From: a virus
Lineage: Duplodnaviria; Heunggongvirae; Uroviricota; Caudoviricetes
Length of the DNA stretch: 6,906 nucleotides
Direction: 5' to 3' (one strand)
IMG/VR virus record: IMGVR_UViG_648276671_000005
This document shows, in pieces, positions 455 to 6,556 of the stretch. The position numbers were made by a program, and so were the translations under genes. Position 1 is the stretch's first letter, and every line of letters begins with the position of its first letter. The notes beneath the pieces were generated by a model. The model was not told the DNA's origin. It was given only the letters and a program-made list of their open reading frames with translations, and did not search any database.

Positions 455-998
455 TTACTTGTCTTTATCCGGCTGAAACTTATCAGGCACATTTCCGGTA
501 GTTTCCATCAGATAATCGGACAGCATTCGCGGGATGTTTTCATCAAGTTTTGTGCATGCGTTACAGGCTCTGACAACTTCTTTTTTCAGGCCATCCAGCA
601 TGACGGGGGTCATCTGTGGGAAGCTCCTTTGCATAGTAAGCGGGCAGGCTGTCCATGATTGATGAAATCTGACTCGCCAGTTTTGAAAGCGCGTACATGC
701 AAAACTCTGTATCAATCACGTCACCGCGATCGCGCTCGTTTTTAAGTTCCTGCGCCTCCGCCTGTGCTGTCAGTAATCTGATCCTGACTCGTAAGAGTTC
801 ATCATCATCAATCTCGCCTTTGTCGTTTGTAAGCTGGCTAATTGCATTGTTAACCCTATTGTCTATCACGCTGGCAACATCATAAAACGCCTCACGGCCT
901 TTACGTTCAATGGGAGTCACTCCCCACTTGTCGAATGCTGTAGCACTTACCCGGCAGCTTTGCGCCATGGTTTTTTTGTTCATCAGGTGCGATTTCAT
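455..998 (-). pseudogene. Lambda Nu1-like terminase small subunit (terS), interrupted by a +1 frameshift at a C5 run (G5 on plus strand, 605-609)
   Basis: ORF 561..1001 (N-terminal part) contains LTAQAEAQELKNERDRGDVIDTEFCMYALSKLASQISSIMDSLP, matching lambda Nu1 [45 protein letters not shown]. ORF 455..715 in the +1 frame contains MLDGLKKEVVRACNACTKLDENIPRMLSDYLMETTG, matching the Nu1 C-terminus FLKRDIIKAMNKAAALDELIPGLLSEYIEQSG. Removing one C from the run GACCCCCGTCATG joins them into an approximately 178-aa protein (Nu1 is 181 aa). Start taken at ATG 996-998 (MKSHLMNKK...); ATG at 983 is an alternative. Could be a real inactivation or a homopolymer sequencing error. Confidence 0.75.
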
Positions 999-1120
999 CA
1001 ATATCCCAACTTGGTCAAGGTTTCAGGTTGGTGTGTTGGTGTTATCTTTCCCTTTTTATTCATGGAGATAGAGCAAACAACAAAACCACCACCACCACCC
1101 TGAAAAAGCTCATAAATAGC

Positions 1121-1175: not shown

Positions 1176-1198
1176 AAAAAAAGCCGGATTTCTCCGGC
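1176..1198 (-). terminator. Rho-independent terminator after the capsid operon
   Basis: Minus strand: GCCGGA-GAAA-TCCGGC followed by TTTTTTT (A7 at 1176-1182 on plus strand), starting 7 nt past the stop of the 137-aa gene. Confidence 0.7.
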
Positions 1199-1204
1199 CT
1201 TGTC

Positions 1205-1977: not shown

Positions 1978-3033
1978 TTAAGCAATTTTGACGGTAACAA
2001 ATTTGCGAATATCTGCCGGTACCGGCTGCGGTGCGCTGTGCGTCTGCACGTACTCAATCGCCGGATCGCCATCCTCAATCCAGTTTTTCGGGTAGTACAT
2101 GTTTTGCGTTGCGCCAGTTCTTACCGCTTCCGGATCCATAATCGCACCATAGGCCACCAGCCCTTTATTGTTAGTGTTGCCCAGGACAAGCAAATCAGGC
2201 TCAAGGAAATATTTTTCGGTGCCATCGCTGTCGGTGTATTTGCCGGAATAGACGATAAGGGCCAGATCACCCAGATAGCCTTTAAAGCTCACCACTTCGC
2301 CCAGGTTTTTACAGGCCAGCTCTGCGGCGGATTCTGAACCACGGGAAAGATCGTACAGTTCACGGAATTTTTTAAAGCTGCGTAACGTGCGCCATACCTC
2401 AGCGCCCATAATCATGACGTTGGCGGGGCAACCAGCCTGATCGGTGTATAGTTCGATGTCATAGATTGGATCGTGTGTTTCCTTATCTGCCTCAGACCAC
2501 TTTTTGCCCGATCCCTGCGTAATGATGTTTTTAGTCGGGATTTTCCAGTCGATTTCGTATCTATTTATTCCTTCGCCCTCAATGATGTTTTTTCCGGTCG
2601 TGACCGCATTCACCGCCAGCCATTCTATGCGAGCTTTAATAGCGTTTACCTGGCGGCGCATGTTGCCAGTAATCAGGCGCATACGGCGATAAGTTGGATC
2701 GTTAAGCTGTGCCGGATCTTCTCCAGCCATGCGCATGATGGTTTTTGATGGATCGATTTCGTGTTTTGGTTTCATGTAGCCAGGGCGGATAGTGCTTGTT
2801 TCGTACCCTTTATCGCGCTGAACCTGACTCCCCACCATAGGCGAACAAAAAGCCGACATGGTGACTTCTTCAATATCCAGGGTATCTAACATGATGTCCT
2901 GCGTGTTGAAGGTTGCCACGTTCGGGAAAAACAGCGACGTAAACAGCGGACTGAATTTAAATTCCGAAATATCCCCACGATTCAGGTACGCGAAAAGCTG
3001 GTTAGTGTTAAGTGCCGTTGCTTTGCCTGTCAT
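1978..3033 (-). CDS. Major capsid protein, lambda gpE family (351 aa)
   Basis: Co-linear similarity to lambda gpE across the whole length: FKFSPLF vs FKFDPLF; RPGYMKPKHEI vs TPGYVKPKHEV; EDPAQLNDPTYRRMR vs EDPQNLADPAYRRRR; NIITQGSGKKWSEADKETHDP vs NNITQGSGTEWSKRDKSTYDP; VSFKGYLGDLALIVYSGKY vs VSYKGMYGDVAIVVYSGQY; VLGNTNNKGLVAYG vs VLGNTQARGLRTYG; YPKNWIEDGDPAIEY vs YPKNWVTTGDPAREF. gpE is 341 aa. Confidence 0.9.
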   Translation of the reverse strand: MTGKATALNTNQLFAYLNRGDISEFKFSPLFTSLFFPNVATFNTQDIMLDTLDIEEVTMSAFCSPMVGSQVQRDKGYETSTIRPGYMKPKHEIDPSKTIMRMAGEDPAQLNDPTYRRMRLITGNMRRQVNAIKARIEWLAVNAVTTGKNIIEGEGINRYEIDWKIPTKNIITQGSGKKWSEADKETHDPIYDIELYTDQAGCPANVMIMGAEVWRTLRSFKKFRELYDLSRGSESAAELACKNLGEVVSFKGYLGDLALIVYSGKYTDSDGTEKYFLEPDLLVLGNTNNKGLVAYGAIMDPEAVRTGATQNMYYPKNWIEDGDPAIEYVQTHSAPQPVPADIRKFVTVKIA

Positions 3034-3239
3034 TATTCACCCCCATGAGTCTGATTCATGCCCAGCGCCGCGCGTAAATAGGCGCGTACCTGCCAGCCTG
3101 TTGACGGCTCAACCATCGCCAGCGGCTCAAGTCCTGCCGCAATGCCTGCTTTTACGTTCTGCTGGTGGCGTTCCTTGAGCGCCTCCACGATGTCTGGGCT
3201 TATGTAAACTGTCACCCCGCCTTTTTTCTCTTCTGCCAT
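3033..3239 (-). CDS. Small hypothetical protein (68 aa from ATG at 3239; 79 aa if the GTG at 3272 is used), translationally coupled to the capsid gene
   Basis: Its stop overlaps the gpE-like start as TAATG (3031-3035). The ORF-track start at 3272 is a GTG inside the palindrome; the internal ATG at 3237-3239 (MAEEKKGG...) has a GAGGAA SD upstream and is preferred. No recognisable family. Confidence 0.5.
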   Translation of the reverse strand: MAEEKKGGVTVYISPDIVEALKERHQQNVKAGIAAGLEPLAMVEPSTGWQVRAYLRAALGMNQTHGGE

Positions 3240-3266
3240 AGTCGGAAATTCCTCTTTGACGTTAAA

Positions 3267-3298
3267 AATCACAACTGGATGTTCATCCAGTTGTGATT
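3267..3298. promoter_or_regulatory. 32-bp perfect palindrome (15-bp arms, 2-bp centre): candidate operator or 5'-leader hairpin for the capsid operon
   Basis: AATCACAACTGGATG-TT-CATCCAGTTGTGATT; arms are exact reverse complements, checked base by base. Directly abuts and overlaps the putative -10 element and lies about 30-60 bp upstream of the first capsid-operon start codon. Confidence 0.6.
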
Positions 3299-3323
3299 AT
3301 AATCATGATTTCATTTTACGCAA
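3296..3323 (-). promoter_or_regulatory. Putative sigma70-type promoter for the capsid operon
   Basis: Minus strand: -35 TTGCGT (complement of 3318-3323), 16-nt spacer, -10 TATAAT (complement of 3296-3301); the palindrome begins at the -10 and covers the predicted start-site region. Sequence pattern only. Confidence 0.35.
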
Positions 3324-3408
3324 TAATATTGAGTTGTATTGCAAATTGTGAAATGATTTCCGGCAACAGTAGTCACCATACTGTTAGATAAAAGCCTCAT
3401 ATGCAAAA

Positions 3409-3445
3409 GCCCGATAAGACCCTCTGACCTTATCGGGCTTTTTTT
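3409..3445 (+). terminator. Rho-independent terminator oriented on the plus strand (possibly bidirectional)
   Basis: GCCCGATAAG-(10-nt loop)-CTTATCGGGC followed by TTTTTTT (3439-3445), preceded by AAAA. On the minus strand only TTTT follows the stem. Confidence 0.5.
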
Positions 3446-3452
3446 GGGGCAT

Positions 3453-3474
3453 AAAAAAGCCGGACTTCTCCGGC
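3453..3474 (-). terminator. Rho-independent terminator after the ssb operon
   Basis: Minus strand: GCCGGA-GAAG-TCCGGC followed by TTTTTT, 17 nt past the ssb stop. Nearly identical to the hairpin at 1176-1198 (one loop difference). Confidence 0.7.
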
Positions 3475-3490
3475 TTCTGTTACTCGTTGC

Positions 3491-3913
3491 TTAAAACGGT
3501 ATGTTATCCCCGTACGGATCATCGTTACCCGCCTGTTGTTTTGCCCTGTTCAGTGCGTCAGTAGCCTGCCCTTGCTGGCCTTTTTTGCCGCCCGGTCGCG
3601 CCGTTCTCGCACTGATTACGCTGTCTGCGATAACCTGCCAGCCCTGCCGCGTTTCGCCGTTCTGGCCTGTCCACTGGCTTACCTGCATGTTACCCGCCAC
3701 GCTCACCAGTTCGCCTTTGTGGTGTTTTGCCAGCGCATCGGCCTGTCTGCCAAACGCCAGGACGGATAACCACATCGTCGCCGTTCCGTCATCTGCCTGG
3801 CTGCACGGAAGGGGGACCGCCATACTAGCCATCGTCATTTGTGTACCCTTGCTGGTGGTCTTTAACTGCGGGTCAGCCACCAGCCGCCCGTAAGCCGCTA
3901 TCTGTGCTGTCAT
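3491..3913 (-). CDS. ssb: Single-stranded DNA-binding protein (SSB), 140 aa
   Basis: OB-fold region WLSVLAFGRQADALAKHHKGELVSVAGNMQVSQWTGQNGETRQGWQVIADSV resembles E. coli SSB [52 protein letters not shown]. Gly/Gln-rich linker and acidic C-terminal tail DDPYGDNIPF (compare SSB DFDDDIPF). Confidence 0.85.
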   Translation of the reverse strand: MTAQIAAYGRLVADPQLKTTSKGTQMTMASMAVPLPCSQADDGTATMWLSVLAFGRQADALAKHHKGELVSVAGNMQVSQWTGQNGETRQGWQVIADSVISARTARPGGKKGQQGQATDALNRAKQQAGNDDPYGDNIPF

Positions 3914-4155: not shown

Positions 4156-4202
4156 AGGCTTTATCTCACAGCAGTAAATTAAAATTTTTGCGTTTTAACC
4201 CT

Positions 4203-4430
4203 TCACCTGTTCACCTTTTGATATTTTCCATTTAAATTCATACTGTTAAGTGGTGAACAGTTTCACAAAAACTATTCACCAACTGTTCACCACTGTTCAC
4301 CCTTGAAGCTCAATAAACAACCAAAAAGGTGAACAGTGAATAGTTTGGTGAACAGTTCATAAATAACTGTTCACCCTATAATATACTGATATAAAAGATA
4401 TTTATGACAGGGTGAACAGTGGTGAACAGT
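4203..4430. repeat. Iteron array, putative origin of replication (nine perfect 9-mers GGTGAACAG/CTGTTCACC in both orientations)
   Basis: Forward GGTGAACAG at 4252-4260, 4328-4336, 4347-4355, 4411-4419, 4421-4429; reverse CTGTTCACC at 4207-4215, 4283-4291, 4293-4301, 4367-4375; plus degenerate copies (4273-4280, 4336-4344). Flanked by an AT-rich stretch at about 4170-4250. Starts immediately after the replication-protein stop. The core TGTTCACC is, as I recall, the P4 ori/crr type I iteron bound by P4 alpha. Confidence 0.8.
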
Positions 4431-4442
4431 TATTCCATAAGT

Positions 4443-6260
4443 TTAATTTTTGCTGTCGTCATTAGTGACCGATACACATGATGGCATCCAGTCTTCTGAT
4501 TCCTCCGTCAGTGTCACGTTTGAACGCAAACCGTGCTTCGTTTTCCGTTTCATATACTCCCTGCCATATTCCGCCATTGCCCCCGGCATATCTTTACCGA
4601 AGCGCGTCAGTGTTACAGGTTTACCAAACCCATGTGCCCTCATATAAGCCAGATAGGCATGATAGAGATACCTGCGTGGGCTGAATGGCACAATTTCAGC
4701 ATTACCCACTAACAGGCCATCACACATTACCGACGCCATGAGATAGCCGCAGAAGTCCACCAGCGAATCCCCCTCTCGCTTTATCGCCAGTGCTTCTTCA
4801 GATTTCTGCTGCTCATATAACAGGCGTCTGGCTTCGTCCTGGTCAGCAAACCGTGTAAGCAGATGGCGAATCACTACCGCCAGCTCACCTTCTATTTTTT
4901 CCGCCAGCATTGGATCGCGTTCGTTCTCCGGTACAACTTCCGAAAAATTGAATATCACCCGACGACGTGAGATCCCCCCGCTGCGGTCACTGAATGACAT
5001 GGCGTTATTGTTAACCGCCAGCACTACTGCCGGAATACGCGTTGAGTAGGGGGCTTTGTGTTTCGGGTCAATTGCCACCTTGTCACCGCCTGTAATAGCC
5101 TTAATCCCTGCCCCATCACCAGCGTAGCGGGTCATATCCGGCATGATAATCAGCGAAAAGCCAACCACTAACGCGCGTTCCCTTGCATCTTCCAGCGCCT
5201 TCATGCTTGCCGATACTGTGTTGGCCTTACCCGCCAGCATGGTGCAAATCTCCGCCATCACGCTTTTACCACTTCCCCCTGGACCTGTTACCTCAATGAA
5301 TAACTGCCAGTCGTACCGGTTCGCCAGCACCATGAATAATGCAGCCAGTACGCGATCCGCCTTGCGGTCATTCTCAGCCACCGAACGGCGTAACCACTTC
5401 CAGAAATTCGGCGCATGTGTTGCCAGCGTTTCCCCCTCTGCTGGTGGGCTGAAAGGTAATTCACTGGCAATTAACAACCAGTCGTTTTTGTTATGCTCCC
5501 GAAAATTACCTGTTCTGGTATCAAATACCCCGTTACTGAATCCAATCAGGTTACGGGCTGTATTCCCCATTACAGGCAAACTTAACTTCATGGTATCGAC
5601 CGCCGATTTAATGGCGTTCTGCGAATAGCTGATCTCCGCATCAATGAAAATCTGCGCCATAGCTCGCTGTAATTCTTTATCCTGTACTGGCTCCCATACA
5701 ACGCCGTTGTAATGGTGAACAGTGTCAGAGTCAGCATGAATCGCCAGTTCACCGCCATAATGTGCCAGGAGAACTTCGCCGCGTTGACTTGCTCCCATCT
5801 GGTTAAGCGCCAGTGATGAAGCGTTATCGTCTTTTACCCGCTCTTTTTTCTTTACAGGCAGTTCAACTACCTTTTTCTTTTCCGCCAGCTCTGCCCGTTC
5901 ACGTTCCAGATATTCGCGCCAGTTCTCCCGTTTCTGGCTGTGCATTCCTTCAGGATAATAATCAGCATCCCTGACACCTGCCGCTGCCAGTTTCTGCCCG
6001 ATGGTATTAACAAGCCCCGGACGCAATAACCCCGCCTGATAGAGACGCACGCGATAGCGTCCGTCCGGTACGATTTGCAGGTTGTCCAGTTCGGCAAGTT
6101 GTTGCTCTCCAAGCCAGACAGGAGGCACGTTATCGCCAGCCAGTCGCCCGTCCTGTTCCTGCCACTGCTTCGCATGTGCCCACGCATCACTACCCGCAAA
6201 AATGATGACTTCCGTCATTTTGTCACGTGGCTGGTGTTTTAAATTTGGCGCTTTTTTCAT
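4443..6260 (-). CDS. P4 alpha-like replication protein (D5-N / SF3 helicase, putative primase-helicase and origin-binding protein), 605 aa from ATG 6260
   Basis: Walker A motif GPGGSGKS (in EVTGPGGSGKSVMAEI) and Walker B-like LVVGFSLIIMPD; size and layout typical of phage/plasmid P4-family primase-helicases; iterons immediately downstream. The ORF-track start at 6275 is GTG; the ATG at 6258-6260 (MKKAPNLKHQ...) overlaps the upstream stop as ATGA and has a GGAG SD. Confidence 0.85.
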   Translation of the reverse strand: MKKAPNLKHQPRDKMTEVIIFAGSDAWAHAKQWQEQDGRLAGDNVPPVWLGEQQLAELDNLQIVPDGRYRVRLYQAGLLRPGLVNTIGQKLAAAGVRDADYYPEGMHSQKRENWREYLERERAELAEKKKVVELPVKKKERVKDDNASSLALNQMGASQRGEVLLAHYGGELAIHADSDTVHHYNGVVWEPVQDKELQRAMAQIFIDAEISYSQNAIKSAVDTMKLSLPVMGNTARNLIGFSNGVFDTRTGNFREHNKNDWLLIASELPFSPPAEGETLATHAPNFWKWLRRSVAENDRKADRVLAALFMVLANRYDWQLFIEVTGPGGSGKSVMAEICTMLAGKANTVSASMKALEDARERALVVGFSLIIMPDMTRYAGDGAGIKAITGGDKVAIDPKHKAPYSTRIPAVVLAVNNNAMSFSDRSGGISRRRVIFNFSEVVPENERDPMLAEKIEGELAVVIRHLLTRFADQDEARRLLYEQQKSEEALAIKREGDSLVDFCGYLMASVMCDGLLVGNAEIVPFSPRRYLYHAYLAYMRAHGFGKPVTLTRFGKDMPGAMAEYGREYMKRKTKHGLRSNVTLTEESEDWMPSCVSVTNDDSKN

Positions 6261-6556
6261 TTCTGCTCTCTCCACGCGGCAATCATGTTTTTCAGTTCCT
6301 GTAGTTTTTTATCCACATTCACACGTGACACATGGTTATTTCTGGAAAGCGGGATTTCCCGCCTGAATCTGCTAATAAAGATCTCCACGTTCAGCGAACT
6401 ATGAAATGAATAGCCATCACGAATAAAATACACACGGTCAAACATTATCGATTTTACTGTTACTCTGTTGCCGTTCTTATCCCGATAAATAGCGCCGGGG
6501 ATAATTTTGGGATGTGCATAACCGCTGGCAGTCAAGCCAGATAAATACGTTCTCAT
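6257..6556 (-). CDS. Hypothetical protein (99 aa), translationally coupled to the replication gene
   Basis: ORF-track ORF with ATG at 6554-6556, SD GGGGA about 9 nt upstream; stop overlaps the replication-protein ATG (ATGA). Unknown function. Confidence 0.55.
   Translation of the reverse strand: MRTYLSGLTASGYAHPKIIPGAIYRDKNGNRVTVKSIMFDRVYFIRDGYSFHSSLNVEIFISRFRREIPLSRNNHVSRVNVDKKLQELKNMIAAWREQK

Follow-up and report, generated by a model that had tools for sequence, protein, structure and literature searches.

The 6,906-nucleotide stretch of viral DNA analysed here (hereafter the window) carries a 32 bp perfect palindrome (3267–3298, minus strand) just ahead of a group of phage head genes, and the question raised by this locus is what acts at the palindrome and with what effect on those genes. 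An earlier note, made from the sequence, had read it as the operator of a dimeric regulator overlapping a promoter-like -10 element, and had favoured a regulator encoded by the element or by a helper phage. We propose that the core of the palindrome (3273–3292) is probably where LexA, the SOS repressor of the host, binds as an operator on the promoter of a four-gene head operon; the position of the site, its score as a LexA box and its conservation pattern all point this way.

Judged by its sequence, the window belongs to the EcCICFT073 type of E. coli PICI. All of the substantial open reading frames are on the minus strand, and from right to left (Pfam and PHROG assignments) there are genes for a DUF4222 protein and a D5-type primase/helicase (4443–6275), then iterons, a small ORF, ssb (3491–3913), the intergenic region with the palindrome, the head genes, and a Nu1-like terminase gene. 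The head genes begin with orf68 (3033–3239; 68 codons; phrog_3255), which corresponds to c1498 of EcCICFT073 and is followed by genes for a lambda gpE-like major capsid protein (c1499; 1978–3033; PF03864, E = 3e-52; phrog_29), a lambda gpD-like head decoration protein (c1500; 1631–1966; PF02924, E = 3e-18) and, last, orf137 (c1501; 1205–1618; 137 aa; phrog_1999). The predicted orf137 product also matches positions 494–568 of the 583 in phrog_53, and is similar to the scaffold portion at the C-terminus of head maturation proteases. We considered a role for orf68 as a ribbon-helix-helix autoregulator and found it unsupported, as its AlphaFold model is of moderate confidence (pLDDT 72) and has no PDB match at E ≤ 0.001.

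The intergenic region is widespread, with blastn matches in 870 of 5,426 complete E. coli genomes, and the annotated neighbourhoods have the Gram-negative PICI layout of int, an alpA-type HTH gene, an icd-like gene, DUF4222, pri/rep, ori, ssb and the head module. EcCICFT073 is itself among the matching islands (NC_004431.1, 1377930–1388654), and the nearest genomic match is an island of E. coli 06-00048 (L001), with 99.6% identity over a 468 bp query (window 3033–3500). The Nu1-like small terminase homologue is an intact 146-codon ORF in the window (561–1001, minus strand); in L001 it is split by the IS21-family element ISEc10 (L001 4078–6966). In many relatives, including EcCICFT073, O157 islands and a Salmonella island, a PerC-family regulator gene lies between ssb and the head-operon promoter (L003 9810–10082, L005 3462–3710, L179 9960–10208 and L091 3482–3760); it is absent from both the window and L001. 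The iterons (GGTGAACAGT) occur in direct and inverted orientation in a dense field at about 4200–4444, directly downstream of the primase/helicase gene, and this is where a PICI replication origin is expected.

The head genes are bounded on both sides by predicted intrinsic terminators. One follows the orf137 stop codon (1176–1199, minus strand; GGCCGGA-GAAA-TCCGGC and then seven Ts, -14.4 kcal/mol), and two strong ones follow ssb (3405–3474, minus strand), at 3453–3474 (-15.9 kcal/mol) and 3405–3442 (-23.5 kcal/mol), separating the replication module from the head-operon promoter. These flanking terminators predict a transcription unit of orf68, capsid, decoration and orf137. The earlier note had placed the palindrome upstream of a capsid operon; the operon does contain the capsid gene, but the first gene is the 68-codon ORF (ATG at 3239), with the capsid gene next at 3033 and all of the genes on the minus strand. 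The 22-mers at 1177–1198 and 3453–3474 are 95% identical (AAAAAAGCCGGA(T/C)TTCTCCGGC), such that one terminator cassette is used twice in the island.

Published RNA-seq of CFT073 at 37°C versus 23°C (PMC12890032, supplement) agrees with these operon boundaries. The genes c1498–c1501 (L179 10463–12497) shift jointly, being 2- to 5-fold up at 37°C, with significant log2 fold changes of +2.24 for c1498, +2.05 for c1499, +1.45 for c1500 and +1.17 for c1501, whereas neither ssb (+0.24) nor c1503 (+0.33) changes significantly. The flanking island genes and sulA are flat. As the operon rises about 4-fold at 37°C while sulA does not, there is a temperature-linked input that is not SOS, and repression of the operon is not absolute. 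A search for LexA-binding (EMSA, ChIP) and SOS datasets from island-carrying strains found none, and this two-temperature comparison was the one transcriptome that it yielded.

Upstream of orf68 there is a sigma-70-type promoter (TTGCGT-16-TATAAT, minus strand) that relatives from E. coli, Salmonella and Pluralibacter all retain. The -35 hexamer (TTGCGT, 3318–3323) is TTGCAn in relatives, its TTGC being invariant in 45 haplotypes, and a 16-nt spacer separates it from the -10 hexamer (TATAAT, 3296–3301), which is TAAAAT in the L004-type clade. The last three nucleotides of the -10 are the first three of the palindrome. Because GATTATAATC is itself palindromic the -10 hexamer reads identically on both strands. 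As a conserved TATAAT at a fixed distance from a conserved -35, it behaves as a true -10. Transcription is predicted to start at about 3289. The 3' arm of the palindrome is followed by a T-run (3264–3268; five Ts here and six or seven in relatives) that is conserved even in relatives lacking the palindrome, and then by a Shine-Dalgarno region for orf68 (AAAGAGGAA, 3249–3257) whose GAGGAA is invariant in all haplotypes. The order on the minus strand is thus ssb terminators, -35, -10, palindrome, T-run, AAAGAGGAA and the ATG at 3239. A candidate promoter farther upstream (TTCACA-18-TATTAT) with a Q-type antitermination leader was discarded, as it is not conserved in Pluralibacter or Salmonella; the region does not present the set of elements that mark a lambdoid Q-type late promoter (a Q-binding element, a -10-like pause element and a downstream terminator), and our search of the phage collection turned up no similar sequence.

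The two 15-nt arms of the palindrome (3267–3281, AATCACAACTGGATG; 3284–3298, CATCCAGTTGTGATT) are complementary at 15 of 15 positions and separated by 2 nt. The window has no longer inverted repeat of the hairpin type, and its 300 first-order Markov shuffles gave maxima of typically 7–8 bp and never above 12 bp. The earlier note was thus right that the arms are far longer than chance would give and that the palindrome overlaps the -10/+1 region of the promoter, sharing 3 nt with the TATAAT and spanning the predicted start, and with this size and position we agree that an operator for a dimeric repressor is its best reading. The Rfam scan of the whole window gave no match near the palindrome, and two genome-contig scans with orf68 and the capsid gene as queries yielded no confirmed loci. 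Comparison with relatives, described below, indicates that most of them have an imperfect quasi-palindrome, of which the window shows the perfect form.

The SOS box of the gammaproteobacteria is a 20 bp imperfect palindrome with the consensus TACTGTATATATATACAGTA, in which an invariant CTG and CAG are placed 10 bp apart. The 20-mer at 3273–3292 (AACTGGATGAACATCCAGTT in the coding-strand reading) has this CTG-N10-CAG frame, with CTG at 3290–3288 and CAG at 3277–3275 (minus-strand reading), and the frame is kept in all of the box-bearing E. coli, Salmonella and Pluralibacter variants. We scored sites by the Berg-von Hippel heterology index (HI), using a symmetrised count matrix from 18 E. coli LexA boxes (PMC3009722, Table 4). 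The window 20-mer has an HI of 7.34, which is inside the range of the 18 published boxes (1.8–12.2) and close to ruvA (7.27), cho (7.03) and lexA (7.01), with uvrD (8.41), ftsK (9.09), dinB (10.09) and polB (12.23) having higher indices. No other site in the window has an HI of 14 or less, the next best having 17.4, and neither 406 kb of lambda-like phage loci nor 2 Mb of Markov sequence contains a site that reaches 7.34. Random perfect palindromes of the same 9+2+9 form score as well at a frequency of 1.4–3.2e-4.

The box has G at position 6 (CTGG rather than CTGT), a minority state among known boxes, and the published set of 18 includes ruvA (CGCTGGATATCTATCCAGCA) and cho (CACTGGATAGATAACCAGCA), which have CTGG...CCAG half-sites. 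With a matrix omitting the G-at-position-6 boxes (ruvA, cho and dinG) the window site has an HI of 8.0, equivalent to one random match per 1.5 Mb, and it still outscores ruvA, cho, uvrD, ftsK, dinB, dinG and polB. The SOS boxes of ruvAB and cho (ydjQ) share with it the CTGGAT...(A/T)CCAG half-sites in the CTG-N10-CAG frame, and CTGGAT-GAAC-ATCCAG in the window differs from CTGGAT-ATCT-ATCCAG of ruvA at the four central bases. Unlike those boxes, the window site is a perfect palindrome, extends 6 bp farther on each side, and sits on the promoter of mobile-element head genes rather than of a DNA-repair gene. The box begins 3 nt past the TATAAT and covers the predicted +1, and a position over the -10/+1 is typical of tightly LexA-controlled genes (PMC8072944). 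By all of the sequence-level criteria tested, from the spacing and score to the placement at the promoter and the conservation described next, AACTGGATGAACATCCAGTT qualifies as a candidate LexA operator. The likeness to the LexA box, which had been described as only loose, is therefore understated: the core scores on a par with validated boxes, its half-sites are those of the ruvAB box, and variation spares the positions critical to LexA.

Conservation was examined in about 180 promoter-bearing loci from E. coli genomes, IMG/VR contigs, and Salmonella and Pluralibacter assemblies, with some contigs present twice. In 45 E. coli haplotypes the box positions 3–8 and 13–18 are fixed, with the sole exception of a CCAG to ACAG change toward the consensus, and variation is confined to the flanks and centre of the box and to the outer arms; the positions critical to LexA are likewise unchanged in the Salmonella and Pluralibacter relatives. 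This constraint profile, with a fixed core and free flanks and centre, is the information profile of a LexA box. The inner CTGGAT...ATCCAG is unchanged apart from a G to A change beside the centre and the CCAG to ACAG change in three haplotypes; both of these one-sided changes improve the LexA score. Positions 6–8 of the outer arms vary freely (CAA/TTG, TAA/TTA, TAA/TTG, GAG/TTA, GAT/TTA, GGA/TTA, GGA/TCC and GAG/TTC). The HI values of natural box-bearing variants are 6.1–10.2, including those of Salmonella (8.83; inner repeat CTGGATAAATATCCAG) and Pluralibacter (9.07). In Pluralibacter the box (CTGGATGTTTGTCCAG) lies 12 nt farther downstream, clear of the -10, and has lost the outer arms with CTG-N10-CAG intact. 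About 10% of the related islands (the L004-type clade and L101) have no box and retain the promoter, T-run and ribosome-binding site, so that LexA control would be dispensable.

The protein acting at the palindrome might instead be some other dimeric regulator, from the satellite or from a helper phage, the choice favoured in the earlier note, and a site over the -10/+1 would suit any repressor. The island encodes small uncharacterised proteins, some relatives have the PerC-family gene just upstream, and a second palindrome at the -35 leaves room for at least one further factor on this promoter. Both the LexA-box score and the conservation pattern point to host LexA rather than to such a protein: the invariant positions are those critical to LexA and the variable ones those that it tolerates, and an unrelated palindrome would score this well as a LexA box by chance at a frequency of about 2e-4. 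A search for further copies of the palindrome had been suggested as a check on its nature; the half-site has no additional copies anywhere in the window, and when 50,697 phage records were searched by BLAST with the promoter and palindrome there was no counterpart of the palindrome, only weak 37-nt matches of the T-run/Shine-Dalgarno segment to unrelated phages. Nor does any candidate gene co-vary with the presence of the box, the box-less L004-type islands sharing the gene set, and orf68 has no DNA-binding fold match. We regard an operator for another regulator as improbable. The earlier note also suggested a stable 5' RNA stem. Such a stem might stabilise the mRNA or control orf68 translation; in its favour, the region lies between the promoter and the ribosome-binding site, and the predicted mRNA would open with a small CUGGAU/AUCCAG hairpin. 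But an RNA beginning about 7 nt past the -10 retains only this 6 bp hairpin, whose stability (-6.3 kcal/mol, z = -0.9) is that of shuffled sequences; the hairpin is clear of the Shine-Dalgarno sequence, Rfam gives no match, and the L004-type clade keeps the untranslated region and ribosome-binding site without any hairpin. Such a role seems to us very improbable.

A more substantial alternative is that the full 15 bp hairpin and its U-run form an intrinsic terminator, insulating the operon from upstream read-through, and that RNA started at the promoter escapes because it lacks the 5' arm; this could coexist with LexA control. Read-through RNA of the full palindrome has a folding energy of -19.6 kcal/mol (z = -6.6), and next to it comes U5 here and U6–7 in relatives, a stable stem-loop and U-run as in intrinsic terminators, and RNA from the predicted start would retain 6 bp with the U-run 8 nt off the stem. 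Three stem pairs are changed on both sides among 17 haplotypes, with a fourth in L235, and ten G-U cells pair solely on the sense-strand RNA. Yet pairing in the 17 distinct haplotypes is 92.5% versus 91.1% in shuffles (9 of 500), arm position 6 is unpaired in nine of them, and the one-sided core changes move toward the LexA consensus and not toward pairing. In Pluralibacter the outer arms are not kept and a 7 bp hairpin is left, and in any case two strong terminators are already present upstream. Relatives without the hairpin still have the T-run and the 3'-arm sequence, so neither is specific to a terminator. Unlike in intrinsic terminators, the 5' arm holds a conserved -10 and lies upstream of the predicted start, and the long stem is moderately G+C-rich and mismatched in most relatives. 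We consider this function, or any such function of the hairpin, unlikely.

The LexA box itself leaves two features unaccounted for, the 6 bp extension of each arm and the two-sided changes in the outer arms (GGA/TCC, GAG/TTC and AATTA/TAATT). Template-switch mutation is known to homogenise quasi-palindromes and can yield apparently compensatory changes without selection. In L070 the arms of the palindrome are intact but its 2-nt centre reads TT instead of AA, the mark that inversion or template switching across a hairpin would be expected to leave; this fits mutational homogenisation of the quasi-palindrome. We conclude that outer-arm pairing is maintained weakly and is not the main constraint on the site, and that either selection for an insulating terminator or template-switch mutation could explain it. 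The outer 6 bp of each arm, outside of the LexA box, are best explained as a quasi-palindrome extension, which could be neutral and generated by template switching, or could be a secondary terminator for read-through transcripts. A combined element, in which the LexA operator is nested within a terminator hairpin whose 5' arm holds the operon's own -10, would take the outer-arm re-pairing as selection for an insulator; we find this doubtful. Were it true, transcripts from the replication module would be stopped and those from the SOS promoter would pass, and the head operon would answer only to LexA.

Returning to LexA control as the preferred reading, we infer that LexA binds at 3273–3292 and that the operon is SOS-inducible from the predicted start. 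In an undamaged cell a LexA dimer over the -10/+1 would hinder RNA polymerase and keep expression of orf68, capsid, decoration and orf137 low; upon DNA damage, RecA-stimulated self-cleavage of LexA would free the promoter. This release signal is the same one that induces lambda-like helper prophages, and the satellite head proteins would thus be made during helper induction. To our knowledge, the one accepted trigger of Gram-negative PICIs is a helper signal acting on alpA, and we know of no repressor identified for them. If LexA control is correct, part of a Gram-negative PICI listens directly to the host SOS response. Our search of the Gram-negative PICI literature found nothing on this promoter or on LexA, and as far as that search went LexA control has not previously been reported in Gram-negative phage satellites.

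The closest point of comparison is with SaPI operon I, the packaging operon, which is LexA-controlled according to those passages of PMC6092414 and PMC6739421 that cite Ubeda 2007. As these sources present it, a satellite morphogenesis or packaging module is in both instances placed under the host SOS repressor, apart from helper-dependent excision and replication. The systems differ in that SaPI operon I has a Gram-positive host and LexA consensus and contains terS/cpm/ptiA-type genes, in contrast to a gammaproteobacterial consensus and a gpE/gpD-like head module here, and LexA control was demonstrated experimentally in the SaPIs, again as reported in the same passages, whereas for the E. coli PICI it is a prediction from sequence. 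By analogy with this account of the SaPIs, the head operon would be wired as the SaPI packaging operon is, and the two would apparently have converged on this control.

EcCICFT073 shares with the window both the gene order and an identical 20-mer box, set in a perfect palindrome (AATCATAACTGGATGAACATCCAGTTATGATT) upstream of c1498–c1501. It differs at arm position 6, where it has T/A rather than C/G, and in the PerC-family gene that separates ssb from the promoter. With the identical site in this model island, the prediction is directly testable there. As points against or limiting the proposal, deletion of c1499 or c1500 gave no detectable phenotype even with mitomycin C induction (PMC6092414), and the whole c1498–c1501 block can be replaced in engineered islands with transduction retained (PMC10460865). 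A LexA box would give these genes, which are widespread in hundreds of E. coli genomes without a known phenotype, an expression condition, and might provide engineered PICIs with a compact SOS-responsive promoter.

LexA-like boxes are also present between int and alpA in several islands (L002 15317–15336, L004 14311–14330, EcCICFT073 [L179] 4289–4308 and L003 14935–14954). Those of L002 (TACTGGTTTTCTGTACAGCT, HI 9.62) and L004 (TACTGGTTTTTTGTACAGTT, HI 7.89) are at the int stop codon; in the copies in EcCICFT073 (TACTGTTTTTTTATACACTG) and an O157 island one critical triplet is mutated. Induction of alpA in EcCICFT073 is helper-dependent and SOS-independent in published work, and the mutated triplet fits this non-inducibility by SOS.

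The second, smaller palindrome covers the -35 (3308–3324, minus strand). It is degenerate in the window (ATTGCGTAAAATGAAAT) and perfect in most relatives as ATTGCA-N5-TGCAAT, and it is kept in divergent clades without a LexA box. It occurs once per island, at this promoter only (e.g. L002 9277–9291 and L093 3911–3925), apart from L101 where it occurs twice (2173–2187 and 2205–2219), and is absent from lambda-like phage loci. This pattern suggests that a second regulator acts on the head operon. We considered whether AlpA or a different island regulator might use the small palindrome and did not retain the idea, as in four whole islands the alpA regions lack the motif, and a reading of TTGCAC-N4-TGCAA as a sigma-54 promoter fails on the GG/GC spacing.

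Finally, a tandem repeat of GGTCAT in about ten copies (150–215) lies within a minus-strand ORF (37–315), where its translation is a series of His-Asp dipeptides; the conserved hypothetical gene at this end of the island could thus contain a tract of variable length.
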